Assembly (NCBI GenBank): GCA_038231275.1
Contig: JBBRLQ010000050.1
Location: 1-33,672, forward strand
Source: Polyangiales bacterium
Lineage (GTDB): Bacteria > Myxococcota_A > Polyangia > Polyangiales > Polyangiaceae
Direction: 5' to 3'
Length of the DNA stretch: 33,672 bases
In this document: positions 17,415 through 30,863 of the stretch, piece by piece
Layout: each line of letters begins with the position of its first letter
Position numbering within the stretch: the first letter of the stretch is position 1
Made by a program: the position numbers and the translations under genes
Notes under the pieces: generated by a model
The model's database searches: none
Seen by the model: the letters and a program-made list of their open reading frames with translations, nothing else
What the model was told of the DNA's origin: nothing

Positions 17415-17462
17415 CGGCCGGGTGGCATAGTGCAACCCACGCGAAACTCAAGCTACCGAGCG

Positions 17463-17500: not shown

Positions 17501-19315
17501 TCAGTAGTTGTCCTTGGAACCCGAGAGAGGACCGGTCGGGGACGGAGCCGGAGTCGGAGTCGGAGTCGCGGTCGGAGTCGCGGTCGGCGTCGGGGTCGCC
17601 GTCGCCGTCGCGGTCGAGGTCGGGCTCGAGGTCGAGGTCGAGGTCGGGTCGGCGGTCGGAATCGGGAACGCGGGCAGCGGCGTATCGGACGCCCCAGCGT
17701 CGACGCGAGGCTTACGCGGACGGCGCGGCGTGGTGGCCGTCGCGACCGGAAGATCCCCCGGCGTCACGGTCCGCGGAACCGACGCCGTCCCTGCGAGCGG
17801 ATCGCTCTCCAGATTGATGGCCGACGGCGGAGGAGGAGGCGCGCTGACCGTCGGCGTCGGCATCGGATCGACCGCGCTCGAAGGCACCTGCGCGAGACGC
17901 GTGTCCGGCGACGACGCGGAGACCGATGCGCTCGTCGCCGCGCCCGCATCCGCGCGATCGAGCAAGTGGCCTTGCGTGACGATCATGACGCCGAGCCCCG
18001 CGGTCACCAGCAGCGCGAAGCCGCCGATCACGAAACCAAGAACACGCGGGCGGCCCGATGGGATCGCGGCCATCGGGACCGAGCCGCTCGCGTTGCTCGT
18101 GGGGCTCGAGTACGAATGCGGCGGCGGTGGGCCGGGGACGGCCATGAGCTGCGGCGCGATGATCCCTCCCTGATCGGGCCCGGGCCGCGACGGGCCTCGT
18201 CGAATCGTCGGCTCCGAGCCCATATCGCCGGCGGCGCCAGGCGAGACGTCACGCATCGTCGCCGCCGGCATGGCGAAGGCGGTGTCGGCGTCCTCGAGCG
18301 CCTTCCGCTCGAGCGTCGTGTCGGGGCTCCGCTCGTCGGACAGCTCGGCGACGCGCTTGGCGACGAGCGCGACATCGAAATCGGTGAGCGTCTCCTCCGC
18401 GTGCTTCATCGGCGGCGGGTTCGAGTTACGACGCGAGCTCGGCGCGCCGCCCAAGCCCATGCGCGCCCAACGCAGCGCCTCGCGCATCGACCCGGCGTCG
18501 GCCCAGCGCTCCGTCCGCTCGAATCTCAGCGCGCGATCGATGACGTTGACGACCGCAGTAGGTACGTCCGGCGCCGCATCACGCAGCGAACGCGCGGGCT
18601 TGGTCGCGCTCGCGAGCACCTTGGCGTGCGCTGTCTCCCCGAGGTGCACGTGCTGCCCCGAGAGCAACGTGAACAGCGTCGCGCCGACGGCCCAGATGTC
18701 GCTGCGCGCACCGACCTGATCGCGCAGGCCCCGCGCCTGCTCGGGTGGCATGAACGACGGGCTCCCCATGATGAGCCCGGTCTCGGTCATCTCGCTCGAA
18801 CGCGCGCCGTCCCACACCTGCGCGATGCCGAAATCGAGCACCTTGATCATGCCGTTCTTCAGGACGAGCACGTTGTCGGGCTTCAAGTCGCGGTGGACGA
18901 CGCCGACCTCGTGCGCCGCCGCGAGGACGTCGAGCAGCTGATCGCCGATGTCGAGGACCTCGATGAGATCCATCCGGCCGACGCGGCTCCTCCGCTGCTC
19001 GAGCGTCTCGCCGTCGAGGAGCTCCATCACGAGGAACGCCGAGCCGTCCTCGGCCATGTCGTCGTCGAGGACACGGAGCGCGCTCGGGTGGTCGACCTTG
19101 TTGGCGAGGTACGCCTCGCGCAAGAATCGCTTGATGAGCCCCTCGTCGCGCGACAAGTGCTTGTGCAAAATTTTGAGCGCGCCGCGCATGCCATTGCGGT
19201 GCGTGCCGGCGTACACCGCCGCCATCGAGCCGGCGCTCAGGAAGGCGTCGACGTGCCACTTCTCGCGGATGGTCGTGCCGACCCTGCCGGCGAAGCGCTC
19301 TCGACCCTCTGCCAC
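17501..19315 (-). CDS. Hanks-type Ser/Thr protein kinase, single TM, Pro/Thr-rich tail
   Basis: ALK, RFLREA, HRDLKPDN, DFG, GSPSFMPPEQ and DIWAVG motifs; TM segment VLGFVIGGFALLVTAGLGVMIV. Start is GTG 19315 or TTG 19333. Confidence 0.92.
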   Translation of the reverse strand: MAEGRERFAGRVGTTIREKWHVDAFLSAGSMAAVYAGTHRNGMRGALKILHKHLSRDEGLIKRFLREAYLANKVDHPSALRVLDDDMAEDGSAFLVMELLDGETLEQRRSRVGRMDLIEVLDIGDQLLDVLAAAHEVGVVHRDLKPDNVLVLKNGMIKVLDFGIAQVWDGARSSEMTETGLIMGSPSFMPPEQARGLRDQVGARSDIWAVGATLFTLLSGQHVHLGETAHAKVLASATKPARSLRDAAPDVPTAVVNVIDRALRFERTERWADAGSMREALRWARMGLGGAPSSRRNSNPPPMKHAEETLTDFDVALVAKRVAELSDERSPDTTLERKALEDADTAFAMPAATMRDVSPGAAGDMGSEPTIRRGPSRPGPDQGGIIAPQLMAVPGPPPPHSYSSPTSNASGSVPMAAIPSGRPRVLGFVIGGFALLVTAGLGVMIVTQGHLLDRADAGAATSASVSASSPDTRLAQVPSSAVDPMPTPTVSAPPPPPSAINLESDPLAGTASVPRTVTPGDLPVATATTPRRPRKPRVDAGASDTPLPAFPIPTADPTSTSTSSPTSTATATATPTPTATPTATPTPTPAPSPTGPLSGSKDNY

Positions 19316-19413
19316 GCGTCGCAGTTTACCCAACGAGGGCGCCCGGTGCGCGCGGATTCGTGCGCTTCCTTTCCGCTTGAAAGTAAGCCGCGTGATGGCA
19401 GACTCCGCCTGCT

Positions 19414-22278
19414 TTGCGCGAACGTAGCGTAGGTATCTTCGCGGCGCTCGCCGGGGCTGCGGCCGTTGCCTGCGCGGGCGCGGCGTTCAGCTGCTCGCCG
19501 AGCCACGACGGAGGCTCCCCCGCCGCCGACGCGTCCACCGACGCCCCGACCGAAGCGGCGCTACCCCCCCTCGAGGCCCCGCCGGAAGCCATCCCGCCCG
19601 CGAAGCGCCGCGACGCGACCTCGAGCCCCGTCGTGTTCGACGCCGAGCGGGGCGGCGTATGGACCGCCAACGGCGAGGTCGGCACCGTCAGCTACGTGGA
19701 CGTCGACGCGCGCCGAGTCGTGGCCGAAATCGCGGTCGGCCAGCAGATCACGTCGGTCGCCTTGAGCCCCGACGCGCGATGGATCGCCGCGGTCGACCGT
19801 GCGGGCGGGCGCGTCGCGCTGGTCGAGGCGGAGGGCAAGACGGTCGCGCGCACCCTCGATGTCGGACCCCACCCGCGCGCGGCGGTGTGGGACGCGTCCG
19901 ATCCGCGTTGGCTGTACGTCTCGCTGGAGGACGACGGCGCCGTCGCGGTGATCGATCGCTCCGAAGGGCGCCTGGTGAGGAAGGTGACCGTGGGTCGCCT
20001 CCCGGCGGGTCTCGCGGTCTCGGCGACCCGGCGTGAGCTCGCGATCGTGCACCGGATCGACGCGCGCGTGACGATACTTCCGCTCGACGGCGTGTACTCC
20101 CCCGCCGACCAGAAGCAGCCGCTCGTCGTCATCGCGCTGGCCGATGAGCCCGCAAACCCCGATCCCAAGGTGCCACAAGGGCGTCCGTTCGCCTTCGAGT
20201 CTCTGGCGTGGAGCCCCGACGGCGCGAAGGCGTGGGTTCCGCACCAGCTCCTCGCGTCGCGTCAGCCGCTCCAGTTCCAGTCCACCGTCTTCCCCGCGGT
20301 GAGCGTCGTCGACGTCGAAGGGCGCGCCGAGGTCCCGAACGATCCGGCGACGGCACCGGACGGCTTCGACGGTCGCAAAGTGCTCTTCGGTGGGATCAAC
20401 GTGCTCGACGAGACGAGCAATACTGCGGTCGTCTCCCAGCCCTGCGCCGCGCGCATCCACCCGCGCGGCCTCGTCGCGTATGCCGTCGCGTGCGGCTCCG
20501 AGGATCTTGTCGTCTTCGACGTCATCACCGGCAAGTCCGTCGACCTCTTGCGCGATCTGCCCGGCGATCACCCGAGCGGGCTCGCCCTCGACGACACCGG
20601 CGCGCGCGCGTTCGTGTACGCCGACCAGTCGCAGACGCTCGCCGTCATCGACCTCGCCGGTGGAAATCCGCTGGAGCACGTGCGCGTCCTCGGCCAAGGC
20701 TTCCCCGTCGTCGCGAAGGACACGCTCGATCCCGAGCTCCGCGAGGGCCTCCGCCTCTTCTACCGCGCGTCGTCGCGCAAGGGCACGATCGCCGCGACCG
20801 GCAACAACTGGATGTCGTGCGGCGCCTGTCACCTCGACGGCTTCGTGTCGACCAACCAGGTGTTCTTCGAGACGCTCGTCGTTCGGTCGCAGGCCGACGA
20901 TGCGCAGATCGGCCACCAAGGGCTGAAGGATCTGTTCTCGACGGCGCCGACGCCGACCGATCCGTCGTTCGATCCTCACGACGTGCTCGTCGCGTTCGCC
21001 GATCAAGGAGGCCTCGCGCCGGATCGAACCGGAGCCAGGCGCGACGGCGCGATCGATCCGTCGAAGCCCACGGCGGAGGCCGCGCAGATGGCCGCGAGGG
21101 TCGCGCGCGTGATCGCCCGCGATCTCCCGCTCGGCCCGAGCTGGCTCCTCCCCGGCACCACCAAGCCCGATCTCGAGCGCGACGGCGCGTGGTGCGGCGC
21201 GTGCCACCAGACCGAGTACGACGCGTGGAGCAAGAGCGCGCACGCGCACGCCGGCGAGGATCCGATGGTGCGCTTCGGCCTCACCGTCGAGAAGAAGGCG
21301 CGCGGGCCGCAGTACGGCCGACTCTGCGCCGGATGCCACGAGCCCACCGGCGCGAGGGCGTCGGACTTCTCGCTCTCGTCGGGGCGCGGCATCACCTGCC
21401 TCGGCTGCCACGAGACCGAGCGCCTGATTCGCGCGGGCGGCAACGCCGACAGCGAAGTGCGCGGCTACGACTGGACCGTGAACCACAAGGCGCGGGCCTC
21501 GGCGGGCCTCGAGACGCTTCGCCAGCCGGAGTTCTGCGGCGGGTGCCATCAGCAGTTCGTCCCTTCGGCCGGCATCGCCGCGATCACGACGCTCGACGAG
21601 TGGCAGCACAGCGCGTACGCGGGCTCGCCCGGCGGAGCGCCTCCGCAGCGCTGCGTCGACTGCCACGCCGCGCGCACGCCAGGGATGACGGCGAACGTAA
21701 ACATGCCCATCGCCGATCACGCGATGATCGGCGGCAACGTGTGGCTCGCCACCAAGTTTGGCGACGCGGACTTCATCGCGCGCACGAAGAAGAAGCTCGC
21801 GTCAGCGGTGTCCCTCGTCGCATCGCGCGGCAACGGGGTCGTCGTGGTCACAGTGGAGAATCTTGGCGCGGGGCACGGCTTCCCGACCGGCGTGACCGAC
21901 ATCCGCGAGCCGTGGGTCGAGATCGAGGCGAAGGACGCGCAGGGCAACGTCCTCGCGCGCTACGGCGGCGTCGGCGCCGACGGCCTCCTGCCCTCCACCG
22001 CCGCGCGCTTCGGCATCGACATCGCGAAGCCCGACGGGACGCTGCTCCTCCAGCACGAGCTCAGCGACACGACGCGCATCCCGTTCGATCGCCGGGTGCC
22101 CGCACAAGGCATCGTCGCGGTGCTCATCACGGTGCCGACGACGCTGCCCTCGGGCACCGCGCAGCTCGACGCGGTGCTCAAGTACAGGAACCTGCGCACG
22201 CCGTACTTCCGCGCTGCGACGGGGGACCCGACGGGCGCGGCGCCGGACGTCGAGGTCGCGCGGGTGGTGGCGCGATGA
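19414..22278 (+). CDS. Lipoprotein: YVTN/YncE-like beta-propeller fused to multiheme cytochrome c (6 CxxCH)
   Basis: Signal peptide with Cys; propeller repeats (VWTANGEVGTVS, LYVSLEDDGAVAVID). Heme motifs CGACH, CGACH, CAGCH, CLGCH, CGGCH and CVDCH; c554-like CHQTEYDAWSKSAHA; C-terminal VENLGAGHGFPTG domain. Confidence 0.88.
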   Translation: MRERSVGIFAALAGAAAVACAGAAFSCSPSHDGGSPAADASTDAPTEAALPPLEAPPEAIPPAKRRDATSSPVVFDAERGGVWTANGEVGTVSYVDVDARRVVAEIAVGQQITSVALSPDARWIAAVDRAGGRVALVEAEGKTVARTLDVGPHPRAAVWDASDPRWLYVSLEDDGAVAVIDRSEGRLVRKVTVGRLPAGLAVSATRRELAIVHRIDARVTILPLDGVYSPADQKQPLVVIALADEPANPDPKVPQGRPFAFESLAWSPDGAKAWVPHQLLASRQPLQFQSTVFPAVSVVDVEGRAEVPNDPATAPDGFDGRKVLFGGINVLDETSNTAVVSQPCAARIHPRGLVAYAVACGSEDLVVFDVITGKSVDLLRDLPGDHPSGLALDDTGARAFVYADQSQTLAVIDLAGGNPLEHVRVLGQGFPVVAKDTLDPELREGLRLFYRASSRKGTIAATGNNWMSCGACHLDGFVSTNQVFFETLVVRSQADDAQIGHQGLKDLFSTAPTPTDPSFDPHDVLVAFADQGGLAPDRTGARRDGAIDPSKPTAEAAQMAARVARVIARDLPLGPSWLLPGTTKPDLERDGAWCGACHQTEYDAWSKSAHAHAGEDPMVRFGLTVEKKARGPQYGRLCAGCHEPTGARASDFSLSSGRGITCLGCHETERLIRAGGNADSEVRGYDWTVNHKARASAGLETLRQPEFCGGCHQQFVPSAGIAAITTLDEWQHSAYAGSPGGAPPQRCVDCHAARTPGMTANVNMPIADHAMIGGNVWLATKFGDADFIARTKKKLASAVSLVASRGNGVVVVTVENLGAGHGFPTGVTDIREPWVEIEAKDAQGNVLARYGGVGADGLLPSTAARFGIDIAKPDGTLLLQHELSDTTRIPFDRRVPAQGIVAVLITVPTTLPSGTAQLDAVLKYRNLRTPYFRAATGDPTGAAPDVEVARVVAR

Positions 22279-23411
22279 AGCACGCCGCGCTCGTCGCCGT
22301 CGCCACGACGCTCGGTGCAGGGATCGCTGCGCTCTGGGCGTGCGGCGCGTCGGGGAGCGGCGCAAATCCGACCGACGCAGGTCCGCCCGCCGCCGACGCC
22401 GCGGTGATCGCGCGCGGTGAATACCTCGTGAAGGCCGTCGCGCTCTGCGGCGAATGCCACACGCCGCGCCTCCCCACAGGTCAGCTCGACACGACGAAGT
22501 GGCTCGCCGGCGTCGACAACCGCTTCGACATCGAGCCCGACGACGACACGCACGGCGCCGTGCATGCGCCGAACCTCACGCCGCACGAGTCGGGGCTCGG
22601 TGGGTGGAAGGACGACGAGATCAAGCGCGCCATCGTCGACGGCGTCGGCATCGAGGGGCCCCTCACGTCGCTCATGCCCTCCTACGTCTTCCACAACATG
22701 GCCTCGGAGGACGCGGACGCGATCGTCGCCTACCTGCGCTCGCTGCCGCCCGTGGATCATCTGATGGGCAACCGGCAGAAGCTCTCGGTTCCGGTCACCG
22801 GACCTTCGACGCCGCTTCCCGAGGCGGCGATTCCGCACACGACCTTGCCGAGCTCCGATCCCAGCTTTGCGCGCGCCGAGCATGGCCGCTATTTGACCGG
22901 CATGGCTGGGCTCTGCATCGATTGCCATTCGACGTGGCGTCCTCAAGCGGAGCCGCCGCTCGCGCTCGGGACGCTCTTCGCGGGTGGCCGGGGCATGTCG
23001 CGCATGGAGTGGAGCGTCGACGGCGACCGCACGCCGCCGGTCATCTACTCGTACAACCTGACGCCGCACCCCAGCGGGCTCAAGGGGTGGACGCCGCCGA
23101 TGATCGTCGCAACGCTGAAGACCAACCTCGACGATCAGAAGCAGCCGCTGTGCCGGCCGATGCCGGGCGGGCCCATGGGCTCGTACGCCGCGCTCACCGA
23201 CGACGACGCGCTCGACATCGCCTTGTACATCACGACGCTGCCCCCGATCGACAGCGGCGAGATCCCGCAGTGCCCGATCCCGAAGCCCGACGCGCCGCCT
23301 CCGGACGACGCGGGCGTGGATGCACCGGTCGACGCACCGCTCGATGCACCGGCCGACGGGCCCAAGGACGGAGGCGGCGACGCGAGTGCGGACGCCGACG
23401 CGGCAGGATGA
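22275..23411 (+). CDS. Diheme cytochrome c lipoprotein
   Basis: ATGA overlap with the upstream gene; ALWA|C lipobox. Two repeats of RG/HG-xYL…CxxCH (CGECH, CIDCH)…NLTP..GL.GW…MP…D…I..Y. It is the C-terminal part of ORF-track 20208..23411. Confidence 0.88.
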   Translation: MKHAALVAVATTLGAGIAALWACGASGSGANPTDAGPPAADAAVIARGEYLVKAVALCGECHTPRLPTGQLDTTKWLAGVDNRFDIEPDDDTHGAVHAPNLTPHESGLGGWKDDEIKRAIVDGVGIEGPLTSLMPSYVFHNMASEDADAIVAYLRSLPPVDHLMGNRQKLSVPVTGPSTPLPEAAIPHTTLPSSDPSFARAEHGRYLTGMAGLCIDCHSTWRPQAEPPLALGTLFAGGRGMSRMEWSVDGDRTPPVIYSYNLTPHPSGLKGWTPPMIVATLKTNLDDQKQPLCRPMPGGPMGSYAALTDDDALDIALYITTLPPIDSGEIPQCPIPKPDAPPPDDAGVDAPVDAPLDAPADGPKDGGGDASADADAAG

Positions 23412-25900
23412 GGAGCTTCAAGATGCCTTCGCGCCACACACGGACTTTCCTATCGCTGCTCGCCGCAGGCGCGCTCACGCCCCTCGCGCTCGCGATCGGC
23501 GGCGCCGGGTGCTCGTCGTCCTCGTCGTCGCCAGACGCGCCGGCCGACGCAGGGCTCGGCGATGCCACCGTCCCCGACGCCGGCGAGGATGCGCCGTGGG
23601 ATCACGTGCGCATTCCGTACGACGGAGAGGCGCCTCCGCCGGGGCCACGAACCAAAGTGACCGCCGAGCTCACGAACGCGCGCGTCGACGTGCAGCAGCT
23701 GATGTTCGCGGCGGGTGAGATGCAGATCAGCGGCGAGCCGTTCGCGCAGCATTTTGCCGGGCGAAACCTGGGGAATTACGATCGCACGTACCTCCCCACC
23801 GATCAGTATTTGATCACGACCGGCGACGACGCGCCGACGGCGCTGACCGATCTGTTCGGCTTCAGCACTGCCGTCGAGTCGTACGAGTACTCGAAGTACC
23901 ACATGAACATGGTCTCGCAGCAGACCGGCGCGGGCCTGTCATTGGCGAACGGACCGGTCATGCTCGCGCGCGAGGCCGGCGCGACGCGCCTCGACAAGCT
24001 TCGCGCGCACGCCGCCCGACTCTTGACCGCCGCCGGCACCGACGTCGCTGGCTACGCCGTCTTGCCCGCGCCCACGAACAACAACCAGAACTACCTCGGG
24101 TTCAGCGGGCTGTGGCCGGTGTTCGTGCCGTTCCGGAGCTTCGACTCGGCCCTCCAGCCGCACCACGAGGCGGTGCAGTCGTGCACGTTCGCGGGCGGCT
24201 ATGGCGGCATCCCGACGATTGGCTCGACCTTGCCGGAGTACGAGTGCGCGTACAACTCGCTGCACATGGGCACGACGAGTGGCGCCGATCCCGCGGCCGA
24301 TCTGGCATACCGGAAGACCGCGGTCGAGAGCGTGCTCGTCCCCGGCGTGCTGGGTCTCGCGACGTGGAAGCAGGCGCTTTGGAGCGTAGACTTCACGAGC
24401 CGCGTGCACGACGCGGCGAGCAACCCGGTCAACGACGTCGCCGCGGCTGATCGCGCGAAGGTCGGCACCGCGAGCAACACGGTGGTGGGCAGCGATCCCG
24501 CGGGGGCGGCCGTCGGCACGTACATCGGCTCGACGCCGCTCGAGGGCATGTGGGGCATGATGATGCTCAGCGAGATGGAGAACTCGGCGGAGCTCGTCGT
24601 CTCCCAGCTCGCGACCGCCGACGGCGTGACGCTCGGTGGCTTCGCGACGCGCGCCGACGCGATCGCCTACGACTACACGTCGCCGCTGCGCTGGTTCCCC
24701 GCGGCGGTGAACGTCACGGAGGACGCCACGGTCCCCTACCCCGCTCCGACGGCATACGCGATCGCCGACGCCTCGAGCCGCGCCGTCGACCTCGCCGGCC
24801 TCCTCCTCGGCAACTCGATGCTGTTCGGCATGACCGACGCGCGCAACCCGGCGCTCGGCGGCCAGCTGGGCCTCACGCTCACGTTCGACGGCGCTCCCTT
24901 CCCCGCCGACGACGGTCTCGCCGGCGTCGAGGACACCGCCCACGATCGCACGCTCGCAGTGCTCCGCGTCGCGTTCATCGATCTGGATCGCATGCACGCC
25001 GATCCGGCGCTCGGCGTCATCGTCGACAAGGCGACCGTCGCCGGCGGCGTCGTCACGCGTGGCACGACGGTGACGACCACTTCGCTGTCCCACGTGCTCA
25101 TCGGCCTCCGTCAGACGCTCCTCTCCTTGAACGCAGCGATCACCCAGTACGGCGCGGCGGATCCCGATCCGGCGATCGACGCGAACGGCATCCTGAACCC
25201 GATCGCGATCCACCCGCCGCAGGGGGGAACGCCGCTCTTCAGCAACCGCGTGCGCGACGTGTTCGCCGCGAACGCGCGCTTCGTGCGCGACGTGCTCACC
25301 AAGGCGGACGGCTCGGTCGCCAATGGGGCCACGCTCGCCGCCGGCGTCGCCACGCCTGATCCCGCCGCGACCACGCTCGAGGCGCAGGCCGCCGCGGTGC
25401 GCGCCCTGATCGAGGGCTTCCTCGTCACCGGCGATCCGACGTACCGCGATCGCGCGCGCGCGGTGTCGACGAAGCTCATGACCGCGTTCTTCAGCGCGCC
25501 GGCGCTGCTCTTCCGCGGCGTCCTCGGCGGCCCTGACGAGGTGCGCATGACGCCGGAGCGCTTCGCGTGGCTGCAGAGCGCGCTGCGCGAGACGCACAAG
25601 GTCATCCACCTGAGCGGCGACGCGTCGCTCGACCGCAGCGTGCTCGAGCCGCGGATCGCCCGCGTGAACAAGCTCTTCTTGAACGGGTGGGATGATCTCG
25701 ACGGCAACCGCATGGTGGACACGGGCCGCGAGTGCCTCGCCGCGCGCATGCAGATGGGCGAGCAGTCGCTCACCGGCGAGCTCGGTCGCGACGACGTCGG
25801 CCGCAACACGACCGATCGCGACAACGACTGCGTGCCAGAGATCGACGACTCGCAGCGCGCCAGCGTCCTGGCGAGCGAAGTCTACTTCCATTCGCCGTAG
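23408..25900 (+). CDS. Large uncharacterised lipoprotein (830 aa)
   Basis: ATGA overlap; IGGAG|CSSSS lipobox; FSTAVESYEYSKYHMN segment; helical C-half; Ca-binding-like WDDLDGNRMVD and DRDNDC. It is the C-terminal part of ORF-track 22454..25900. Confidence 0.8.
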   Translation: MRSFKMPSRHTRTFLSLLAAGALTPLALAIGGAGCSSSSSSPDAPADAGLGDATVPDAGEDAPWDHVRIPYDGEAPPPGPRTKVTAELTNARVDVQQLMFAAGEMQISGEPFAQHFAGRNLGNYDRTYLPTDQYLITTGDDAPTALTDLFGFSTAVESYEYSKYHMNMVSQQTGAGLSLANGPVMLAREAGATRLDKLRAHAARLLTAAGTDVAGYAVLPAPTNNNQNYLGFSGLWPVFVPFRSFDSALQPHHEAVQSCTFAGGYGGIPTIGSTLPEYECAYNSLHMGTTSGADPAADLAYRKTAVESVLVPGVLGLATWKQALWSVDFTSRVHDAASNPVNDVAAADRAKVGTASNTVVGSDPAGAAVGTYIGSTPLEGMWGMMMLSEMENSAELVVSQLATADGVTLGGFATRADAIAYDYTSPLRWFPAAVNVTEDATVPYPAPTAYAIADASSRAVDLAGLLLGNSMLFGMTDARNPALGGQLGLTLTFDGAPFPADDGLAGVEDTAHDRTLAVLRVAFIDLDRMHADPALGVIVDKATVAGGVVTRGTTVTTTSLSHVLIGLRQTLLSLNAAITQYGAADPDPAIDANGILNPIAIHPPQGGTPLFSNRVRDVFAANARFVRDVLTKADGSVANGATLAAGVATPDPAATTLEAQAAAVRALIEGFLVTGDPTYRDRARAVSTKLMTAFFSAPALLFRGVLGGPDEVRMTPERFAWLQSALRETHKVIHLSGDASLDRSVLEPRIARVNKLFLNGWDDLDGNRMVDTGRECLAARMQMGEQSLTGELGRDDVGRNTTDRDNDCVPEIDDSQRASVLASEVYFHSP

Positions 25901-25920
25901 GTCGACGTAGGCTCGGGGCC

Positions 25921-26391
25921 ATGAAGAGCGACCCGAAGGTCATCGACCTGCTCAACGAGATCCTCACCGGCGAGCTCACCGCCATCAACCAGTATTTCTT
26001 GCACGCTCGCATGTGCGGCAACTGGGGGTACAAGCGGCTCGAGGAGCAAATCAAGAAGGAGTCGATCGGCGAGATGAAGCACGCCGACACGCTCATCGAG
26101 CGCGTGCTCTTCTTCGAGGGCCTGCCCAACGTGCAGCGCCTCGGCAAGATCAACATCGGGCAGAACGTGCCCGAGATCCTCGCCAACGATCTCGCCGTCG
26201 AGATGGTCGCCATCCCGCTCTTGAACCGCGCGATCGCTGTGTGCCGCGACCTCGGCGACAACGGGACCGAGGATCTCCTCACGAAGATCCTCGTCTCGGA
26301 GGAAGAGCACGTGGACTGGATCGAAGAGCAGCTCGAGCTCATCAAGCAGCTCGGCGCAGCGCATTACCTCGCGCAGCAGGTCCACGGCTGA
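25921..26391 (+). CDS. bfr: Bacterioferritin
   Basis: ATG at 25921; ELTAINQYFLH, EMKHA (E51, heme ligand M52, H54), E94 and EEEH; 156 aa. Confidence 0.97.
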   Translation: MKSDPKVIDLLNEILTGELTAINQYFLHARMCGNWGYKRLEEQIKKESIGEMKHADTLIERVLFFEGLPNVQRLGKINIGQNVPEILANDLAVEMVAIPLLNRAIAVCRDLGDNGTEDLLTKILVSEEEHVDWIEEQLELIKQLGAAHYLAQQVHG

Positions 26392-26444
26392 TCATTTTTT
26401 TCGGCGTGATCTCCGCAGGTTGGCGGCATTCGATCGGAGCGGGC

Positions 26445-26472
26445 TTGCGTTGATAATGGTTTTCATTATCTT
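26445..26472 (+). promoter_or_regulatory. Fur box overlapping the bfd promoter
   Basis: GATAATGGTTTTCATTATC at 26452-26470 (consensus GATAATGATAATCATTATC, perfect 7-bp arms). It spans the spacer between -35 TTGCGT (26445-50) and -10 TATCTT (26467-72) and overlaps the -10. Confidence 0.88.
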
Positions 26473-26478
26473 TTAGAT

Positions 26479-26679
26479 ATGTACGTTTGCGTCTGCCGAG
26501 CGGTCACCGACAAGAAGGTCGAAGAGGTCATCGAGCACGGCGCGCAGACGGTGGACGCGGTGACGCGGGCGTGCGGCGCCGGGGGCGACTGCGGCGCGTG
26601 CCGAGAGAAGATCGGTGAGATGATCGACGCGGCGCAGGTCGTCCCGGCGGCGCGGCTCGTTCGCGAGAAGGCGGCGTAG
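26479..26679 (+). CDS. bfd: Bacterioferritin-associated [2Fe-2S] ferredoxin
   Basis: MYVCVCRAVTD…GAGGDCGAC; 66 aa; adjacent to bfr. Confidence 0.93.
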   Translation: MYVCVCRAVTDKKVEEVIEHGAQTVDAVTRACGAGGDCGACREKIGEMIDAAQVVPAARLVREKAA

Positions 26680-26704
26680 CGACGGCGTTCGGCCTCTCGG
26701 TCGT

Positions 26705-28084
26705 TCACTCCTTCGGGAGGAACGGGACCTTCAGCTCGACCACATCGAGGCATGGCGCGCGGCGGTCGAGGCGCTCCGGACGGCAGAGGCGCTTCCACGG
26801 AGCCGACGGGTACGGCGGCGCTTCGATGCCTCGCACCTCTGCGGTGACGAAGACCCGCGTGGGAAGCGACGGCAGGCGATCGAGCGCCAGGCGGACGTCG
26901 CCCACCGAGCCTGCGCCGTGCGCGACCGCGGACAGATCGGTCGCCTCGAAGAAGCGCACGCTGGGTCCGCCGAAGATCGCCGCGCGTGCCGGGCTCGGGA
27001 GCTCGCGGACGGCGGCGACGAGCTGTGCACCGGGAGGCGCCACGGTCGTTCGCTCGTGAACGTCGCCGAGCGTGCGCAGGGCGCCGATGGCGAAGAGAGC
27101 AACCCCGAGCCGGCGACCGCGATCGACGCTCATCGCCGCGAGCGCGAGGGCGCCGGCGAGCGCGGCGACGAGAGGGACGACGTGACGCGGCTGTTGCCGG
27201 AGGTTCTGTCCGGCGAGCACCCAGAGGAGGTACGGCCCCAGCGCGATGGCGGCCGTGCGCGCGCCCGCCCATTCTGCGCGACGCCACTCGGTGATCCCGA
27301 CGAACGCCACAGCTGCCGCCGTGCCGCCCAAGACGAGGCCCAGCGGATCACGACCGATACCGAGCCCGTCGACGAAGACGTCCCGCGCGAGGTACATGAG
27401 CCGCTCGGCGCCGGGATCGGTCAACGCGGTGCCGCCCCAGCGTGTCGTGTGCCCCGCGAGGTGCGTCTGGAGGAGCGCGACCAGGTGCGAAGGGCCGACG
27501 ACCAACGCGAGGGGGACGGCCCACGCCAGCGACGCGAGCGCGGCGAACGCGAGCGCGCGAGGGCGTGCACGCGGCGCGAGGACCAGGAGCGCGAGGTAGA
27601 GCGGCGCCCACGACGCGCGCACGCCGAGGCCGAGCCCCACCGCGACGCCGAGCCAGTCCGCGCTCTCACGGACGAGCGCCCACGCCGCGAGGGCCGCGAA
27701 GAGGAGCGCCAGCGCTTCGGTGCCGACGCCGGACTCCGCGCGCCACACGAGCGGCACGATCGTGACGGCGAGCGCGACCGCCCACCCGCGCGCGTCGCCG
27801 AACGTCCGCGACACGGCGTCCTTCACCAGCGCCGCGACGCCGACGCCGGAGAGCACGCTCACGGCGGTCGCGGCGACGAGCGGCGAACGAAGCACCAGCG
27901 CGAGCGACTTCGCGACGGCGACCCACACCGGATACCCGGGAGGATGTGGCGCGAAGCGATCGAGATCGAAGCGCGTGACGGCGGCCACGAAGCCCAGGCC
28001 GTCCCAATCGTCGGGCCACGACGGCGCGCTGATCGTGAGCAGCACCGCGATCGCCGCGTACAGCGCGAGCGGCCCCTTCTTCAT
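26705..28084 (-). CDS. Polytopic membrane protein, GT-C glycosyltransferase-like (HPPGYP motif)
   Basis: PDDWD acidic loop after TM1, PHPPGYP, many TM helices, QPRHVVPL and a soluble C-domain; ATGA overlap with the upstream oxidoreductase. Confidence 0.65.
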   Translation of the reverse strand: MKKGPLALYAAIAVLLTISAPSWPDDWDGLGFVAAVTRFDLDRFAPHPPGYPVWVAVAKSLALVLRSPLVAATAVSVLSGVGVAALVKDAVSRTFGDARGWAVALAVTIVPLVWRAESGVGTEALALLFAALAAWALVRESADWLGVAVGLGLGVRASWAPLYLALLVLAPRARPRALAFAALASLAWAVPLALVVGPSHLVALLQTHLAGHTTRWGGTALTDPGAERLMYLARDVFVDGLGIGRDPLGLVLGGTAAAVAFVGITEWRRAEWAGARTAAIALGPYLLWVLAGQNLRQQPRHVVPLVAALAGALALAAMSVDRGRRLGVALFAIGALRTLGDVHERTTVAPPGAQLVAAVRELPSPARAAIFGGPSVRFFEATDLSAVAHGAGSVGDVRLALDRLPSLPTRVFVTAEVRGIEAPPYPSAPWKRLCRPERLDRRAPCLDVVELKVPFLPKE

Positions 28085-29484
28085 GCGGTGATCGCCGTCG
28101 ACTCGATCGGCGCGCGCGCCCGACCGATGGCGTCGAGGGCCGCGCCGTCGCGCTCGCTGCGCATCATCTGTCGCGCCGCGAGGACGCCCATCTGCATCGC
28201 GGCGTCCATGAACACGTAGCGAAAGAGCCCCTGCCGGCCTGCCGTACGGACGTTGGCGAACTCCGAGACGACGCGCAGCAGTTCCTGACGATCTCGCTCG
28301 TAGCCGAGGTGATAGACCGGATAACCGTGCGCCACGCGCACCACGAACGCGCCGGTGACGTCGTCGACCGCGAAGCCCAGCGTCCGTAGCTCGTCGCCCA
28401 TTCGGCGGCGGAGCTCGGTCACGTCGGCGCGCCAGAGATCATCGCCCACGTCGCAGGGGATTTCGAGCATCAGCGACGTGCGGCCGTCCGGGGCCATCGC
28501 GACGCTCCGCCGCTTCGGCTCCTGGATGCGCGACATGGCGAGGCCGCCGCTGGCGACGTACATCCAGGTGTTCTCCGAAAAATCGCGGCGCGCGAGCATC
28601 AGGTTGAGGAAGGTCAGCGCGCGAAAGCGGAGCGGCGGGCGCGGCGCGTCGGGGCGGAGCTCGCGGGCGAGATCGGTCAGCGGGATCGTCGAGAGGAGCT
28701 CGCCGACCGGTATTCGCATTGGCCCCGCGGCGGTGTCGGCACGCACGGCGACGACGCGCTTGCCCGCAGTCTCGAACGACAGGCTCACGACGCCCGTGAC
28801 GATCTCGCCGCCGAGCGATCGCACCTCGCGCGCCATCTCCTCGTAGAGCTGCCCCATTCCGTGACGGGGATAGCGGTAGCGTCGCGCGTACGTGCGCACC
28901 TCGCTCGTGCGGAGGCCGCCCATTCGGAGGAGCGCGTCGCCGAGGTGGAGCAGGCTGATGCGCTCGGCCGCCCAGTCGGCGGAGATGCGGCTCGGGTGAA
29001 TGCCCCAAAGCTTCTGCGTGTACGGCCCGAAGAACGCGTCGTAGAGCGGGCGGCCGAAGCGCGAGGTGACCCAGTCCTCGAACGAGACGTCGGGCCGCGG
29101 GCGGACGGCAGAGACGGCGCGCGCGCGTGCGTAGCCCGCGAGGGCGCGCGCGTTCTCGCGAACGCCGAGGCTCCGGACGAGATCGGCGGCGTCGAGCGGA
29201 TACTTGAACGTGCGCCCGTCGTGGAGCACGACGCTCTTTCGCTCTTGGGTGAGGAGATCGTCGCCCAAGAGTCGCTCGAGCCAGCGCGAGAGCTCGGCGC
29301 TCGCGGACACGAAACGGTGCCCGCCGAGATCGAAGCGAAACCCGTCCTTGGCGTGCGTTGCGCAGAGGCCCCCCACCAGGGCCTCGCGCTCGAGCACGAC
29401 GGGGCGCCATCCGCTCCGCGCGAGCTCCCACGCGGCGGCGAGCCCGCAGGGGCCCCCACCGAGGATCACGTGCGGCCCGTTCAC
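28081..29484 (-). CDS. FAD-dependent oxidoreductase (UDP-galactopyranose mutase / protoporphyrinogen oxidase-like)
   Basis: ILGGGPCGLAAA, LERE…VGGL, FDLGGHRF, YTQKLWG, YPRHGMGQ, YPVY and GRQGLFRYVFMD motifs. Confidence 0.85.
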   Translation of the reverse strand: MNGPHVILGGGPCGLAAAWELARSGWRPVVLEREALVGGLCATHAKDGFRFDLGGHRFVSASAELSRWLERLLGDDLLTQERKSVVLHDGRTFKYPLDAADLVRSLGVRENARALAGYARARAVSAVRPRPDVSFEDWVTSRFGRPLYDAFFGPYTQKLWGIHPSRISADWAAERISLLHLGDALLRMGGLRTSEVRTYARRYRYPRHGMGQLYEEMAREVRSLGGEIVTGVVSLSFETAGKRVVAVRADTAAGPMRIPVGELLSTIPLTDLARELRPDAPRPPLRFRALTFLNLMLARRDFSENTWMYVASGGLAMSRIQEPKRRSVAMAPDGRTSLMLEIPCDVGDDLWRADVTELRRRMGDELRTLGFAVDDVTGAFVVRVAHGYPVYHLGYERDRQELLRVVSEFANVRTAGRQGLFRYVFMDAAMQMGVLAARQMMRSERDGAALDAIGRARAPIESTAITA

Positions 29485-29497
29485 GCGAGGACCGACT

Positions 29498-30721
29498 TCA
29501 GCTCCAGAGGGCCCGCGCCACGCCGTCGACGAGCGCGCGCGCCGCAGCTGCCGTCGGCAACCCCGCGGTCGCGACGAGCGACGCCGGCGTCGCGGCGTCG
29601 ACCTCGTCCATCAGATCACGGATCGCCTGCGCCCTCGCCTTCGCGACGCGCGCGCGTCCGTCGTCGTCGAGCCGGCTCGAGGCCCACTCGGCGACCGCCC
29701 ACGCGAGCGCAGCGTGGCGCGTCTCGTCGTCCGCGATCTTCGCCATCTGCGCGCGGACATCCGCATCCTCCGCGTGCACTGCCTGGTACGCCGCCAGGAG
29801 CGCGCCGAAGGTCTCCCGAACGCAGCCCTCGGCGGCGTTCTCGATCGCGAGCGCCTCGAGCGAGCGTATCGCCCCACGCCGTACCTTCGCGAGCTTCGGC
29901 GTGGCGCCGAACCTTCGGGCGAGGCGCGCCGTCGCGCGGGTGTGGCGGACCTCGTCCTTCGCCGAGCGCTCGGCGAGGAGGACGAGCTCGCGTGGCGCCC
30001 TGTGCGCGACGAGCTCCGCGCGAAGCGTCCGAAACGCAGCGATCGATGCCCCTTCGAGGTGCGACAGCTGCGCGAACCACGCGCCGACCTCGGTGCCGCC
30101 GCGCCGCGCGAAGCCTTCCATCGCCTCGGGCCTCCGGCCGCCGAGGCACTTCGTGCAATCGACGACGACGTCGGTCGTGTCGATGATCTCGTTCGTCCCG
30201 CCGTCGCTCACGGTCCGACAATTGGCGGAGGGCACGAAGCACCCTGCGTTGGGGATGAAGCCGCAGGTGGAGGCGCACACGTCGAGCTTGAAGTAGCAGC
30301 CCGGACCGGCGGCTACCGGGCCCGGCATGCAGGTCTTCAGGTCGAAGAAGTAGTCGCACGCGCCGTCGTCTGCGGCGTCGAGGTAGACGGCCCCGTCGAT
30401 CCGCGGGTGACCGGCGTTGGCGTCGGGATCGTTGGGGCAATTCGAAGCCGGCCCGTCGCGGACGGAGGCGTCGTTCCCGGTCGAGCCGTCTTGGCCCGTC
30501 GACGAGTCGTCGCCGGCGTTCGAGTCAGTCGCCGATGACCCATCGCTGCCGGTGTCCGATCCGGTGGTGCCGTCGCCTTGCGAGCTCGCGTCGGGGGTCG
30601 CGCCGTTGTCCCCGCCGGACGAAGAGCTGCACGCGTAGAGGACCGCTGCTGGCGCGCCGAGAGAGAGAAGAAGGAGCGAGCGGAAAGCACGCCGGAGGCG
30701 CCTCTCTTCGTCACGGATCAT
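29498..30721 (-). CDS. Ferritin-like (diiron carboxylate) domain lipoprotein
   Basis: ATG at 30721; RRLRR…AVLYA|C signal; Ser/Gly/Asp linker; Cys-rich domain; GRRP; then LEGASIAAF…DEVRH…ENAAEGCVRET…DETRH. Confidence 0.82.
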   Translation of the reverse strand: MIRDEERRLRRAFRSLLLLSLGAPAAVLYACSSSSGGDNGATPDASSQGDGTTGSDTGSDGSSATDSNAGDDSSTGQDGSTGNDASVRDGPASNCPNDPDANAGHPRIDGAVYLDAADDGACDYFFDLKTCMPGPVAAGPGCYFKLDVCASTCGFIPNAGCFVPSANCRTVSDGGTNEIIDTTDVVVDCTKCLGGRRPEAMEGFARRGGTEVGAWFAQLSHLEGASIAAFRTLRAELVAHRAPRELVLLAERSAKDEVRHTRATARLARRFGATPKLAKVRRGAIRSLEALAIENAAEGCVRETFGALLAAYQAVHAEDADVRAQMAKIADDETRHAALAWAVAEWASSRLDDDGRARVAKARAQAIRDLMDEVDAATPASLVATAGLPTAAAARALVDGVARALWS

Positions 30722-30758
30722 TGGGAAAGAATGGCCGACGCGGGCGACCTCGTCCAGG

Positions 30759-30774
30759 GCAAGCGTCGTTCCGG
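30759..30774 (-). promoter_or_regulatory. Possible sigma54 promoter of the ferritin-like operon
   Basis: Minus strand CCGGAACG-ACGC-TTGC (GG-N10-GC with TTGC), about 38 bp upstream of ATG 30721. Confidence 0.45.
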
Positions 30775-30863
30775 CGACTTCCTGCCGGTGCCTGCTCGGA
30801 CATAGGTTGGTCCGAGACGCGCGCTTGCGTGGGCGCTGGCTCGGTGACAAAACCAGGTCAGCC

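Follow-up and report, generated by a model that had tools for sequence, protein, structure and literature searches.

A propeller-haem lipoprotein and its (alpha/alpha)6-barrel neighbour in soil myxobacteria: a possible envelope haem-enzyme module

The gene cluster and its surroundings

The analysed window is a stretch of 33,672 nucleotides from a Polyangiales bacterium. Three genes, here indicated as A, B and C, are followed by bfr and bfd and, on the opposite strand, by three further genes:

19414-22278, + strand: gene A, ORF of 954 aa, TTG start
22275-23411, + strand: gene B, ORF of 378 aa
23408-25900, + strand: gene C, ORF of 830 aa (or 825 aa)
25921-26391, + strand: bfr, bacterioferritin, ORF (TIGR00754)
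26452-26470, strand not assigned: Fur box, 19-mer consensus match
26479-26679, + strand: bfd, bacterioferritin-associated [2Fe-2S] ferredoxin, ORF (PF04324)
26705-28084, - strand: GT-C type membrane glycosyltransferase-like gene, with weak PMT_2/TMEM260 similarity
28081-29484, - strand: FADox, FAD enzyme resembling eukaryote-type UDP-galactopyranose mutase (UGM) (NF005547)
29498-30949, - strand: g483, Cys-rich lipoprotein with a ferritin-like domain, motif read from the sequence

A sequence-only reading of the same DNA had described A, B and C as lipoprotein genes carrying eight CxxCH motifs, and this is confirmed: the three are real, co-directional and tightly packed, lipoprotein-type N-termini are read from their translations (..AAFSC27S in A, ..LWAC23G in B, ..GGAGC35SSSSS in C), and the motifs are six in A and two in B. 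The ATGA junctions on which that reading joined them are both present (22275-22278 for A/B, 23408-23411 for B/C), but the second overlap is lost if C starts at the second ATG (23423), which fits the 825 aa of the database record for C (P0006): B and C would then be spaced by 11 nt. In the plus strand cassette, no porin, quinol dehydrogenase or molybdo-/flavo-subunit was found; no iron permease or TonB receptor is found beside it within the window.

The only bfr copy found in this assembly begins 20 nt past the C stop, and no terminator-like site was found between the two. With TIGR00754 it reaches 207.9 bits (cut-off 125.55); bfd reaches 55.8 bits with PF04324 (cut-off 26). The Fur box, GATAATGGTTTTCATTATC, has 2-3 mismatches to the 19-mer consensus and is separated by 8 nt (26471-26478) from the bfd ATG; no second site of this kind occurs in the window, and 100 shuffles gave an expectation of 0. 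Coordinates, profiles and box search agree with the order initially proposed, bfr 20 bp after C and then a Fur-boxed bfd.

FADox scores 390 bits against NF005547 (cut-off 380) and is nearest to eukaryote-type UDP-galactopyranose mutases (E 4e-17). This flavoprotein and the GT-C gene, both part of a conserved neighbourhood, had been missed in the sequence-only reading. The C-terminal domain of g483 contains two ExxH motifs, read from the sequence, of a putative four-helix, di-iron-like (ferritin-like) type; one g483 relative gives weak AurF/Rubrerythrin matches.

Domains and folds of the three lipoproteins

Protein A, whose C27 is invariant, contains a seven-bladed YVTN propeller (about residues 70-440), after which comes the first haem domain, of CCP/MauG type, with its CxxCH at 469. 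Next are an ExtKL/c552-type pentahaem module (CxxCH at 594, 638, 662, 708 and 747) and a C-terminal beta-sandwich with an invariant GHxFPTG motif. None of the six CxxCH motifs varies among the 32 aligned homologues. The best match of the propeller is hydrazine synthase beta (5c2v_B: Z 37.1, rmsd 2.1, 303 aligned). A also matches pentahaem c552 5ze8 (Foldseek E 2.4e-13, TMt 0.64); we infer that this match, for which Foldseek printed no aligned range, belongs to the C-terminal part. A Pfam profile search gives no CCP_MauG match in A at E <= 0.1; the haem-1 segment is homologous to the first haem domain of the partner proteins found in the sister clade of C (see below). Profiles, motifs and folds bear out the original description of A as a propeller with one peroxidase-type haem and a five-haem, c554-like module.

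The succession of a seven-bladed YVTN propeller and a CCP-type haem domain is shared with hydrazine synthase beta/gamma and its fused non-anammox homologues. According to the available text of PMC12758564, the latter are widespread among environmental bacteria, in some cases carry extra c554 domains, usually have a second large subunit as neighbour, and have no known function. A differs in the lack of a second CCP/gamma-type haem domain, whose place is taken by the pentahaem module and beta-sandwich, and in scores far under the cut-offs of the hydrazine-synthase NCBIfam models (50 against 560, 37 against 1250); its large neighbour is an (alpha/alpha)6 barrel, not an alpha homologue, and nothing at the A-B-C module suggests nitrogen chemistry. 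Five CxxCH motifs followed by an Ig-like beta-sandwich characterize, as in A, the PHC pentahaem cytochromes (Geobacter ExtKL, T. tepidum c552 5ze8, cable-bacteria PHCs), a family described in the available part of PMC11976967. In A, however, the module is fused behind a propeller-haem enzyme, and the ExtKL model aligns residues 660-848 at 41 bits, for a cut-off of 250.

Protein B is a dihaem class-I cytochrome c (CxxCH at residues 58 and 214), in whose sequence Met ligand motifs of the MP type can be read. Among solved structures it comes closest to the cytochrome subunits of the membrane-bound dehydrogenases for fructose, glucose and alcohol (7w2j_C, E 4.3e-17; also 8hdd_B and 8gy2_B). Such cytochrome c subunits, including those of aldehyde dehydrogenases, have class-I haem domains resembling B, and pass on to the respiratory chain the electrons that a periplasmic catalytic subunit delivers; B differs from them in having two haems rather than three, in being lipid-anchored, and in the absence of a FAD/PQQ catalytic subunit beside it.

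Protein C is predicted to fold into one large (alpha/alpha)6 six-hairpin barrel with long insertions (residues 84-829, about 750 residues). It belongs to no Pfam or NCBIfam family, and its relatives are all "hypothetical"; against PDB profiles the best E is only 0.046, with no glycoside-hydrolase family match in sequence and no known catalytic motif identified. The fold matches 5zig_A (Z 17.5, 350 aligned), 5x32_B (Z 17.1) and 4xuv_B (Z 16.8), and its structural kin, at Z 14-17.5, are cellobiose 2-epimerase, mannose isomerase, GH105, GH88 and GH76; GlcNAc 2-epimerase is the next-nearest Atlas cluster (score 0.79, a lead only). The barrel had been overlooked in the sequence-only reading. The six-hairpin fold is common to C and to AGE-superfamily epimerases/isomerases, GH76, GH88 and GH105, but only about 350 of the roughly 750 residues align, at 9-13% identity, and C, being a lipoprotein, has a haem protein as its partner. 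Six residues are nearly invariant (W320, K321, W325, Y159, Y161, H334). The modelled fold, together with conserved Asp, Glu, Trp and Tyr, points to carbohydrate chemistry rather than metal handling. As originally claimed, A, B and C correspond to no characterised complex over their full length.

Conservation of the neighbourhood and the iron link

C is present in 34 of the 151 genomes of the family that were sampled. An A-type propeller match lies within 5 kb of C in 25 of 38 C places (26 with one later-found case), counts that are not independent, because the compared genomes are one another's relatives; 11 of the 25 feature full-length A and 14 the propeller only. Of 29 related loci, 9 have full-length A adjoining C: in L002 the two genes run in the same direction, while in L006-L009, L015, L024, L028 and L029 they are divergent. 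The expected co-occurrence of A and C is, accordingly, repeated across relatives. The three-gene cassette with bfr, in contrast, does not hold as a conserved unit: B is found in only 5 of the 9 A-C loci, and the usual order is A(-B) divergent from C, rather than A-B-C.

In the sister clade, C is partnered by a protein of about 650 aa, with a propeller and two CxxCH motifs (dihaem CCP/DHOR-like), which follows C in 12 of 13 loci (L031-L038, L043-L045, L049); the gene pairs are tight, with overlaps often below 20 bp. These partners match DHOR, RoxA-like, MbnH and hydrazine-synthase beta-gamma models, the fused beta-gamma model covering both parts; matches to MbnH-family, MauG-like and hydrazine-synthase gamma models are all under cut-offs. 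One database ORF of 1460 aa (P0396) contains C and partner in a single frame, and looks like a read-through or calling artefact, because an internal signal peptide and lipobox are retained. In a C tree, built by a quick method, haem-partnered loci make up 11 of 12 rows on one side of the basal split and 10 of 26 on the other, and the partner labels change 6 times, against a shuffled mean of 20.0 (0 of 200 shuffles as low). For the 12 C genes of one clade, the surrounding 10 kb contain no haem partner; in G031, A and C are on separate contigs, and distant C relatives occur without haem partners (L039-L041, L046), some distant relatives bearing type IX secretion tails. The conserved unit is the pair formed by C and a propeller-haem protein, not the three-gene cassette with bfr.

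GT-C and UGM-like genes are the commonest neighbours of C within its own clade: within 10 kb of C, a GT-C gene is present in 16 loci, window included, and FADox in 10. The operon order in relatives is A-B-FADox(-GT-C), with B/FADox junctions of 3-6 bp or overlapping in L007, L008 and L009. No GT-C or UGM-like gene lies within 10 kb in the 13 sister-clade loci.

The slot between C and the GT-C gene, 804 bp here with bfr and bfd, is below 300 bp in 10 relatives, where GT-C is convergent to C (L010, L011, L013, L017, L022, L023, L027, L028, L029, L047). Only in the window's genus does bfr directly follow C; in L002, from a sister species, a minus-strand gene separates the two. Judging from gene order, bfr and bfd are here a genus-specific, recent insertion between C and the GT-C gene, probably co-transcribed with C and outside the conserved machine. 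Across the 34 C-bearing genomes, 4 have bfr at no more than 6 kb from C (G000, G019, G066, G101; 3 of 24 genera). In other genera, bfr/bfd and C genes have ferritin-like g483 paralogues at their side; such paralogues are beside C in L002, L032, L033, L038 and L049, although some of these adjacencies may be due to chance, since the family has 13 matches in this genome. L033 also contains a Dps-like ferritin and an ABC-3 metal transporter.

In 852,521 bases (window and loci), only 7 sites have up to 4 mismatches to the 19-mer Fur consensus: each of them is located either at one of the genes bfd and bfr or where a C-type operon has its 5' end. Local-palindrome Fur-like boxes are found at operon 5' ends in 6 of 13 sister-clade loci (L032, L033, L038, L044, L045, L049); the refined palindrome was built from the very hits to which it was then applied. 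In L033, L038, L045 and L049 the box overlaps codons of the conserved N-terminus M-K/R-I/V-I/V-F/L, so that part of the Fur-like signal could be coding conservation, not an operator. No Fur-like box was found before A or before any of the 9 related A-type loci, where the best sites, with 8-10 mismatches, are at background level. The suggested tie to iron is retained at the family level, through bfr proximity and the relatives' boxes; at the locus itself, the restriction of adjacent bfr to one genus and the lack of a box before A do not support it.

Possible function of the module

An envelope glycan or glycoconjugate pathway offers an explanation which we consider rather unlikely. The substrate of C, as a six-hairpin enzyme (hydrolase, epimerase or transglycosylase), would be a glycan or glycoprotein with furanose units, the glycan being made with the help of the UGM-like enzyme and transferred by GT-C; A and B would oxidise or reduce this glycan, or be glycosylated clients, and the iron genes would be bystanders. 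The epimerase, isomerase and GH-like fold of C, its Atlas neighbour, the tightly joined A-B-FADox-GT-C operon, the frequency of GT-C and FADox near C and the mutase kinship of FADox all fit, as do the T9SS tails of distant C relatives, which are common on secreted glycan enzymes. Yet the sister clade lacks GT-C and UGM-like genes (0 of 13 loci) while keeping the haem partner in 12, C shows neither a glycoside-hydrolase sequence match nor an identified catalytic motif, and the synteny of GT-C, seen inside a single family, may reflect shared descent instead of a functional link.

It is improbable that the pair is a maturation system of the MauG-preMADH or MbnH-MbnP type, where a high-valent haem of the propeller protein would modify C post-translationally, through a Trp-, Tyr- or Lys-derived cofactor or cross-link, into a functional enzyme or metal binder. 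The sub-cut-off MbnH, MauG and gamma matches, the tight gene pairs, the single-frame P0396 and the nearly invariant residues of C are in line with it; but a modification site is not demonstrable from sequence, P0396 looks like an artefact, A has lost the second CCP-type haem domain used by MauG chemistry, and standalone C relatives have no partners. An extracellular or outer-membrane electron conduit to external iron minerals (Geobacter ExtHIJKL, Mtr/Pcc-like), with C as surface component, is very improbable: neither the cassette nor its conserved neighbours include a porin-like or MtrB/ExtI-like gene, sister-clade partners carry two haems only, and the ExtKL score is far below cut-off, against which stand the ExtKL/PHC-like module of A, the three lipid anchors and the adjacent bfr/bfd. 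Chance juxtaposition of unrelated neighbours in a gene-dense genome, already disfavoured, is scarcely credible; the separate contigs of G031 and the partnerless 12-member clade would suit it, but adjacency survives three gene arrangements and both sides of the basal split, with far fewer label changes than in shuffles.

We tentatively prefer, as a possibility somewhat short of probable, to regard A, B and C as an undescribed envelope haem-enzyme module of soil myxobacteria, probably linked to iron or peroxide. Close parallels are the bCCP/MauG/DHOR pairs (MauG-preMADH, MbnH-MbnP, DHOR-imelysin, EfeB-EfeO), where, as here, a periplasmic haem peroxidase-type enzyme lies beside a non-haem partner; however, A has one CCP-like haem domain instead of two, C differs in fold from imelysin, MbnP and the MADH light chain, and no permease gene is near the cassette. 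The available text of PMC3143127 places DUF1111/DHOR dihaem peroxidases, in its drawings, in the gene neighbourhoods of imelysin-like proteins for which a part in iron uptake is implied, and presents DHOR and Efe systems as iron-regulated or implicated in that uptake; the Fur-like boxes at relatives' operons are a counterpart.

In this module, A, B and C would be lipid-anchored and extracytoplasmic, possibly forming a complex, with C and a propeller-haem protein of the hydrazine-synthase beta-gamma or CCP-MauG-DHOR kind as core pair. In this lineage, A keeps the propeller and the first, catalytic-type haem domain, with the pentahaem module and beta-sandwich in place of the second, electron-transfer one of relatives, and the His/Met dihaem B is an added component. 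The reaction may take place at haem 1, by the propeller, and depend on peroxide or O2, as it does in CCP, MauG and DHOR enzymes; the five presumably bis-His haems of A and the two of B may act as a relay to periplasmic or respiratory redox partners, and C would bind or process an extracytoplasmic substrate. By analogy with the EfeB-EfeO and DHOR-imelysin pairs, a candidate chemistry is the oxidation or handling of Fe(II), driven by peroxide. Evidence at the family level assigns the pair to the Fur-family regulon, so that its likeliest role would be in envelope iron/peroxide homeostasis.

Organization of the cassette and its surroundings

The window is one entire contig of a 9.28 Mb assembly in 164 contigs; its G+C content is about 70%, and the database records related to it are Polyangiaceae and Myxococcales MAGs. 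The features of interest are listed below.

Features of the cassette region: coordinates, strand and description.
19414-22278, + strand: gene A, lipoprotein with a propeller, 954 aa, six CxxCH motifs
22275-23411, + strand: gene B, dihaem cytochrome c lipoprotein, 378 aa, two CxxCH motifs
23408-25900, + strand: gene C, giant lipoprotein, 830 aa
25921-26391, + strand: bfr, bacterioferritin, TIGR00754 above cut-off
26452-26470: Fur box, 2-3 mismatches, last base 8 nt 5' of the bfd start
26479-26679, + strand: bfd, bacterioferritin-associated [2Fe-2S] ferredoxin, PF04324 above cut-off
26705-28084, - strand: GT-C gene, glycosyltransferase-like, weak PMT_2/TMEM260 similarity
28081-29484, - strand: FADox, flavoprotein with likeness to eukaryote-type UDP-galactopyranose mutases
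29498-30949, - strand: g483, Cys-rich lipoprotein, two ExxH motifs

A, B and C encode three exported lipoproteins, with eight c-type haem sites. The sequence-only reading had described ATGA overlaps at the A/B and B/C junctions and eight CxxCH motifs over the cassette: both overlaps are present in the sequence, and the motifs are distributed as six in A and two in B. The database record of C (P0006) is 825 aa long, which fits a start at the second ATG, 23423; with this start, a B-C spacer of 11 nt replaces the overlap. Lipobox Cys27 and all six CxxCH of A are invariant in 32 out of 32 homologues. In a simple scan of 19000-27000 no promoter-like site was found, and terminator-like sites were three, where 2.6 are expected; the C-bfr interval contains none of the three.

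At one end the contig carries fusA, rpsG and rpsL on the minus strand (187-3442), and at the other the 3' end of rpoC (32742-33671, minus strand); the G+C content of the ribosomal genes goes down to 0.64. In bacteria, rpoC and rpsL are commonly near neighbours: here they are separated by about 29 kb of unrelated genes, the cassette among them. Family matches are absent for a 932-aa protein (3697-6495), for possible genes at 9086-12372, where a lower GC3 is badly handled by the GC3-based caller, and for a 459-aa lipoprotein (16056-17435), which shows a weak EF-hand-like match and is kept in the sister species.

Domain composition of the encoded proteins

A carries a CCP-type first haem domain on a propeller, together with a PHC-type pentahaem module, and is composed of four parts. 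The first is a 7-bladed YVTN propeller: in structure, hydrazine synthase beta comes closest to it (5c2v_B, Z 37.1, rmsd 2.1, 303 residues aligned), with a YVTN domain from an archaeal S-layer in second place (Z 35.8). The second, around the first CxxCH at residue 469, can be aligned, motif by motif, to haem domain 1 of the propeller-dihaem proteins of CCP/DHOR-like kind, the common motif being ..LRLGxxxFxSAxS..W(V/M)SCxxCHxxG... The third contains five more CxxCH, with c554, c7, MtrC-domain and ExtKL matches, all sub-threshold at the equivalog level; the fourth is a confidently modelled C-terminal beta-sandwich, with an invariant GHxFPTG. The T. tepidum pentahaem c552 (5ze8) ranks third in Foldseek (E 2.4e-13, TMt 0.64), whose output gives no aligned range; the match probably falls on the C-terminal part of A. 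Given the available invariant histidines (His610, 691, 769, 821 and 881), the PHC haems are probably bis-His.

Family tests define the position of A more closely. bCCP/MauG dihaem peroxidases contain two CCP-type haem domains, with a CxxCH in each, and are recognised by their family model (PF03150), whereas A has no match to this model at E <= 0.1, and only its first haem segment aligns with the CCP/DHOR-like partners found in a sister clade of C relatives. Likeness to hydrazine synthase beta is confined to the propeller, at the fold level: scores are 50.4 with NF052340 (cut-off 560) and 37.1 with NF052342 (cut-off 1250). The ExtKL/PHC model NF040886 gives 41 bits against a cut-off of 250, below the equivalog level, while the five CxxCH, the beta-sandwich and the 5ze8 match fit the wider ExtKL/PHC fold family. 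NrfA/Hao enzymes feature a CxxCK or a cross-linked catalytic haem and have family models of their own; in A no CxxCK is present, and only sub-threshold NrfH, DmsE and HmcA matches were obtained. A shares folds with bCCP/MauG and hydrazine synthase, and probably with ExtKL, and fails all three at curated thresholds. In PMC11976967, T. tepidum c552, ExtKL and the PHCs of cable bacteria are united in a "pentahaem + Ig-like" family.

Solo PHC-type pentahaem modules, 33-35% identical to A residues ~535-940, occur in the window's genome (G000:C33:11859-13226 and G000:C13:33531-34463) and in many genomes of the family: the module is therefore mobile and expanded. A second full-length A paralogue, divergent from A and 66% identical, is found in the sister species (L002, 2887-5751, minus strand). 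A multi-His metal site was considered as a shared propeller feature, and discarded: H153, H349 and H386, invariant in A, are not kept in the ~650-aa partners of the sister clade, and the site could be particular to A.

B is a dihaem class-I cytochrome c. Among solved structures it is nearest to the cytochrome subunits that serve membrane-bound dehydrogenases of sugars and alcohols (7w2j_C, E 4.3e-17), and the MP motifs in its translation indicate that the haems are probably His/Met.

C, a six-hairpin barrel, matched no Pfam or NCBIfam family. Of 8000 candidates scored, 563 are relatives of C, which group into 330 clusters at the 50% identity level; all 120 that were listed are unnamed or "hypothetical". 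Relatives of A number 309. The model of C, obtained from a 40-sequence alignment (pLDDT 86.1, pTM 0.89), is a single (alpha/alpha)6 barrel, residues 84-829. The best fold matches are cellobiose 2-epimerase (5zig_A, Z 17.5, rmsd 2.9, 350 residues aligned), mannose isomerase, GH105, GH88 and GH76, with an identity of 9-13% over some 350 residues in every case, and Z values of 14-17 are reached by many GH and AGE chains; for helical repeats, a Z of about 13 is attainable through arrangement alone. The model places C in the six-hairpin glycosidase-like (alpha/alpha)6 superfamily, an assignment which fixes the fold and not the function. For the specific GH/AGE families (GH76, GH88, GH105, PF07221), no Pfam or NCBIfam match was obtained and the best PDB profile had an E of 0.046: C is of the six-hairpin fold class, and of no known family. 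The near-invariant residues, which include many Asp, Glu, Trp, Tyr, His and Arg, suggest an enzyme or a specific binder, not a scaffold. A terpene cyclase was rejected: class-II cyclases match at Z 14.8, below AGE/GH chains, and the DxDD motif was not seen. A putative complex of C (84-830) and A (400-600), modelled without the full propeller, reached an ipSAE of 0.01 against a mark of 0.32, a value that counts neither for nor against their association.

Three distant relatives of C (P0206, P0259, P0271; 27-33% identity) end in Por_Secre_tail type IX secretion sorting domains, indicating that the barrel family is surface-exported also outside Myxococcota. A homologue with four in-frame TGA codons (G029:C17:770480-772177) may be a pseudogene or an assembly problem.

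The bacterioferritin scores 207.9 bits with TIGR00754 (cut-off 125.55), and its translation contains E18, E51 and H54, which we take, by family numbering, to be ferroxidase residues, and M52, presumably the haem ligand. The Bfd ferredoxin scores 55.8 bits with PF04324 (gathering cut-off 26), and features the four Cys of a CxC...CxxC pattern.

Conservation of the pair and its relation to iron genes

Twenty-nine loci encoding C relatives were searched with the window's proteins; gene ends in these loci are approximate, as the GC3-based caller used misses low-GC3 genes and misplaces some starts. Full-length A adjoins C in 9 of them, and only in the same-genus locus L002 is the window's A-B-C order found; L006-L009, L015, L024, L028 and L029 have the two genes in divergent orientation. 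In 5 of the 9 loci, A is followed by B (L024, L028 and L029 do not contain B; L006 ends inside A). In L007-L009 the genes run A-B-FADox(-GT-C), and B and FADox either overlap or are 3-6 bp apart. The nearest kin of FADox are eukaryote-type UDP-galactopyranose mutases (E 4e-17), and its NF005547 score is 390, with a cut-off of 380.

The family sample includes 151 genomes from 89 genera, relatives of one another and in many cases fragmented MAGs. C is present in 34 genomes and 24 genera, and an A-type propeller match lies within 5 kb of C in 25 of 38 places (11 full-length A, 14 propeller-only); one additional C place with a propeller partner was found in G101. Partners are absent from 12 places, several of them on short contigs, and in G031 C and A are on separate contigs.

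The sister clade consists of C relatives of about 40% identity. Next to each, on the 3' side and frequently with the start codon overlapping the C stop, comes a gene for a ~650-aa protein composed of a propeller and two CxxCH; this partner is present in 12 of 13 loci (L031-L038, L043-L045, L049) and absent from L042. These partners match Lactonase/YncE propeller models, RoxA-like cytochrome c, MbnH-family and fused hydrazine-synthase beta-gamma models, as well as DHOR (up to 31.8 bits, cut-off 22). Fused beta-gamma homologues are described in PMC12758564 as common in environmental bacteria and of unknown function, sometimes with added c554 domains and usually with a second large subunit alongside. 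P0396 (1460 aa), the only longer relative of C, is a single reading frame that covers a C of the sister clade and the propeller-dihaem protein paired with it. It was rejected as a Rosetta-stone fusion, since an internal signal peptide and lipobox remain, and is probably a read-through, a lost stop codon or a gene-calling artefact.

A quick maximum-likelihood tree of 42 C sequences (SH-aLRT support only, midpoint-rooted) leaves four distant standalone homologues outside. The remainder forms two clades: in one, 11 of 12 rows have the ~650-aa partner; in the other, 10 of 26 have A, and a derived 12-member subclade has no haem partner and lies in a different synteny, among genes for a HEAT-repeat protein, a GT-C enzyme and an Omp85 protein. 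Partner labels require 6 changes, against a shuffle mean of 20.0: because so few are needed, the propeller-haem association would most simply be ancestral to the Polyangia C family. A may then be the derived form, with the PHC module in place of the second haem domain, this order of events depending on the midpoint-rooted tree. The pairing of barrel and propeller-haem protein is conserved, and a chance juxtaposition of the cassette genes is very unlikely.

The synteny of the partnerless paralogous clade is fixed (L013, L014, L022, L023, L027, L010, L012, L018, L026): a ~710-845-aa cytoplasmic protein, with a HEAT_2 match in one case, is divergent from C, and a GT-C gene, a ~225-aa protein, an Omp85-family protein and a GST lie downstream and convergent. 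Next in the row, in L013, are genes for a TonB-dependent receptor and a cupredoxin-like protein.

The sequence-only reading had put the cassette in one operon with bfr, and this did not hold across relatives. In the window bfr and bfd fill the slot between C and the convergent GT-C gene, which in 10 relatives is less than 300 bp from the C stop; in the sister species (L002), C and bfr are separated by a g483-like gene on the minus strand. The window's genome has one copy of bfr, a gene recovered from 106 of the 151 family genomes. In 4 of 34 C-bearing genomes (G000, G019, G066, G101), from 3 genera, bfr and C are no more than 6 kb apart: by estimate, and the genomes being related, this is far more than chance would give with one or two bfr genes per 6-10 Mb.

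The Fur box reported at bfd was recovered at 26452-26470, as the sole one in the window, with none expected by chance. Its extension to A-B-C failed: no Fur-like box is present 5' of A or of any A-type locus, where the best matches have 8-10 mismatches (10 upstream of the window's A). When the window and 48 loci (852,521 bases) were scanned with a 19-mer consensus, allowing up to 4 mismatches, only 7 sites were found: 4 at bfd or bfr (window, L002, L033, L049) and 3 at the head of C operons belonging to the sister clade (L033, L049, L045). The local palindrome GAAAATGAnnnTCATTTTC, a refinement built from the very hits it then scored, gives 8 sites with up to 2 mismatches, all at bfr/bfd, at C-operon 5' ends (L032, L033, L038, L044, L049) or 5' of a small cytochrome gene (L049). 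With both motifs combined, L045 included, 6 of 13 sister-clade operons carry a Fur-like box.

In L033, L038, L045 and L049 the box overlaps the first C codons (M-K/R-I/V-I/V-F/L), and coding conservation could contribute to the signal. Against coding conservation as the sole source stand the palindrome in non-coding DNA at bfr/bfd, the AT-rich codons in a 70% G+C genome and the hexamer arrays. These arrays cover the C start codon and MKIIF... (L033 8186-8216, L049 9155-9179, L038 7657-7675, L045 11237-11255), as might be expected if repression at +1 acted on transcripts with a short leader or none; in the same genomes, the GAAAATGAnnnTCATTTTC palindrome lies 7-90 bp 5' of bfd and bfr. A regulator of the Fur family, such as Fur itself or PerR, would act there, with either sign.

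Paralogues of g483 adjoin C in L002, L032, L033, L038 and L049, in L032 on the same strand with a 4-bp overlap. g483 has 13 matches in the window's genome, paralogues being found on G000:C34, C26, C30, C10 and C41, and with so many copies some of these adjacencies may be chance. It features a Cys-rich region of roughly 100 aa and a C-terminal four-helix domain with two ExxH, and no Pfam match even at E <= 1; one relative has weak AurF and Rubrerythrin matches. From its sequence, g483 looks like an unrecognised exported di-iron/ferritin-like family, recurrent beside bfr/bfd and C genes. In G066 (L033, 1815-5415), a sister-clade pair lies in a metal island with an ABC-3 permease and ATPase, a Dps/ferritin-like gene, a small cytochrome c, a cytochrome c'-like gene and a bfr with a Fur-like box of its own.

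Possible roles and significance

No full-length match to a characterised complex was found for A, B or C, and a literature search of titles and abstracts (MauG/bCCP fusions, Polyangiaceae multihaem proteins, hydrazine synthase in Myxococcota) did not find the cassette. It is rated as a dihaem-peroxidase-type enzyme with a dedicated partner protein, of new partner fold and domain architecture. Haem 1 would be the reactive centre, C would supply the substrate site, and the PHC haems and B would relay electrons between haem 1 and periplasmic or respiratory partners.

A role in iron and peroxide homeostasis is tentatively ranked first, because of the Fur-family boxes, of the bfr/bfd and ferritin-like neighbours and of the kinship with DHOR: it might consist of peroxide-driven Fe(II) oxidation or handling, or of a removal of peroxide that depends on iron status. 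PMC3143127 shows DHOR/DUF1111 dihaem peroxidases among the gene neighbours drawn for imelysin-like proteins, which are implicated in iron uptake. A glycan-directed role, suggested by the fold of C and by the UGM-like and GT-C genes, ranks second, as a possibility of lower probability. A maturation of C, similar to those carried out by MauG or MbnH, is third and improbable. An Ext/Mtr-like conduit is more unlikely still: neither the window genes nor the conserved neighbours include an outer-membrane beta-barrel gene of the kind expected for a porin-cytochrome conduit (Mtr, Pcc, Ext), and the OmpA-domain gene at 6577-8412 lies 11 kb from the cassette and is not conserved with it.

Beyond the iron and peroxide role, C and its propeller-haem partner might form a new, Fur-family-regulated class of extracytoplasmic two-subunit metalloenzymes, built on hydrazine-synthase logic and wired to the respiratory chain, a proposal to be regarded as doubtful. 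The CCP-type haem on the propeller would make a reactive species or a high-valent oxidant, to be channelled into the six-hairpin active site or to install there a protein-derived cofactor; in the window's lineage, the ExtKL-type pentahaem module and the dihaem cytochrome c would provide the connection to the respiratory chain.

The A and C families are large and wholly uncharacterised; comparison gives a clean signal, and each part taken singly is familiar. Two large families, so far labelled "hypothetical" or "multiheme cytochrome", now form a conserved, probably functional pair, with folds and domain histories, and the Fur-family boxes at the operons of relatives point to a regulator. The exchange of a CCP-like electron-transfer domain for an ExtKL-type haem wire would be a case of modular haem-enzyme evolution, and bears on the ways in which bacteria connect catalytic haems to electron transport. 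Should a logic like that of hydrazine synthase apply, the chemistry of that architecture would be wider than anammox. Polyangia are abundant in soil and sediment, with very large and mostly unannotated genomes. The two-subunit metalloenzyme, if true, would give soil Polyangia a new redox reaction in the periplasm, one coupled to iron status.
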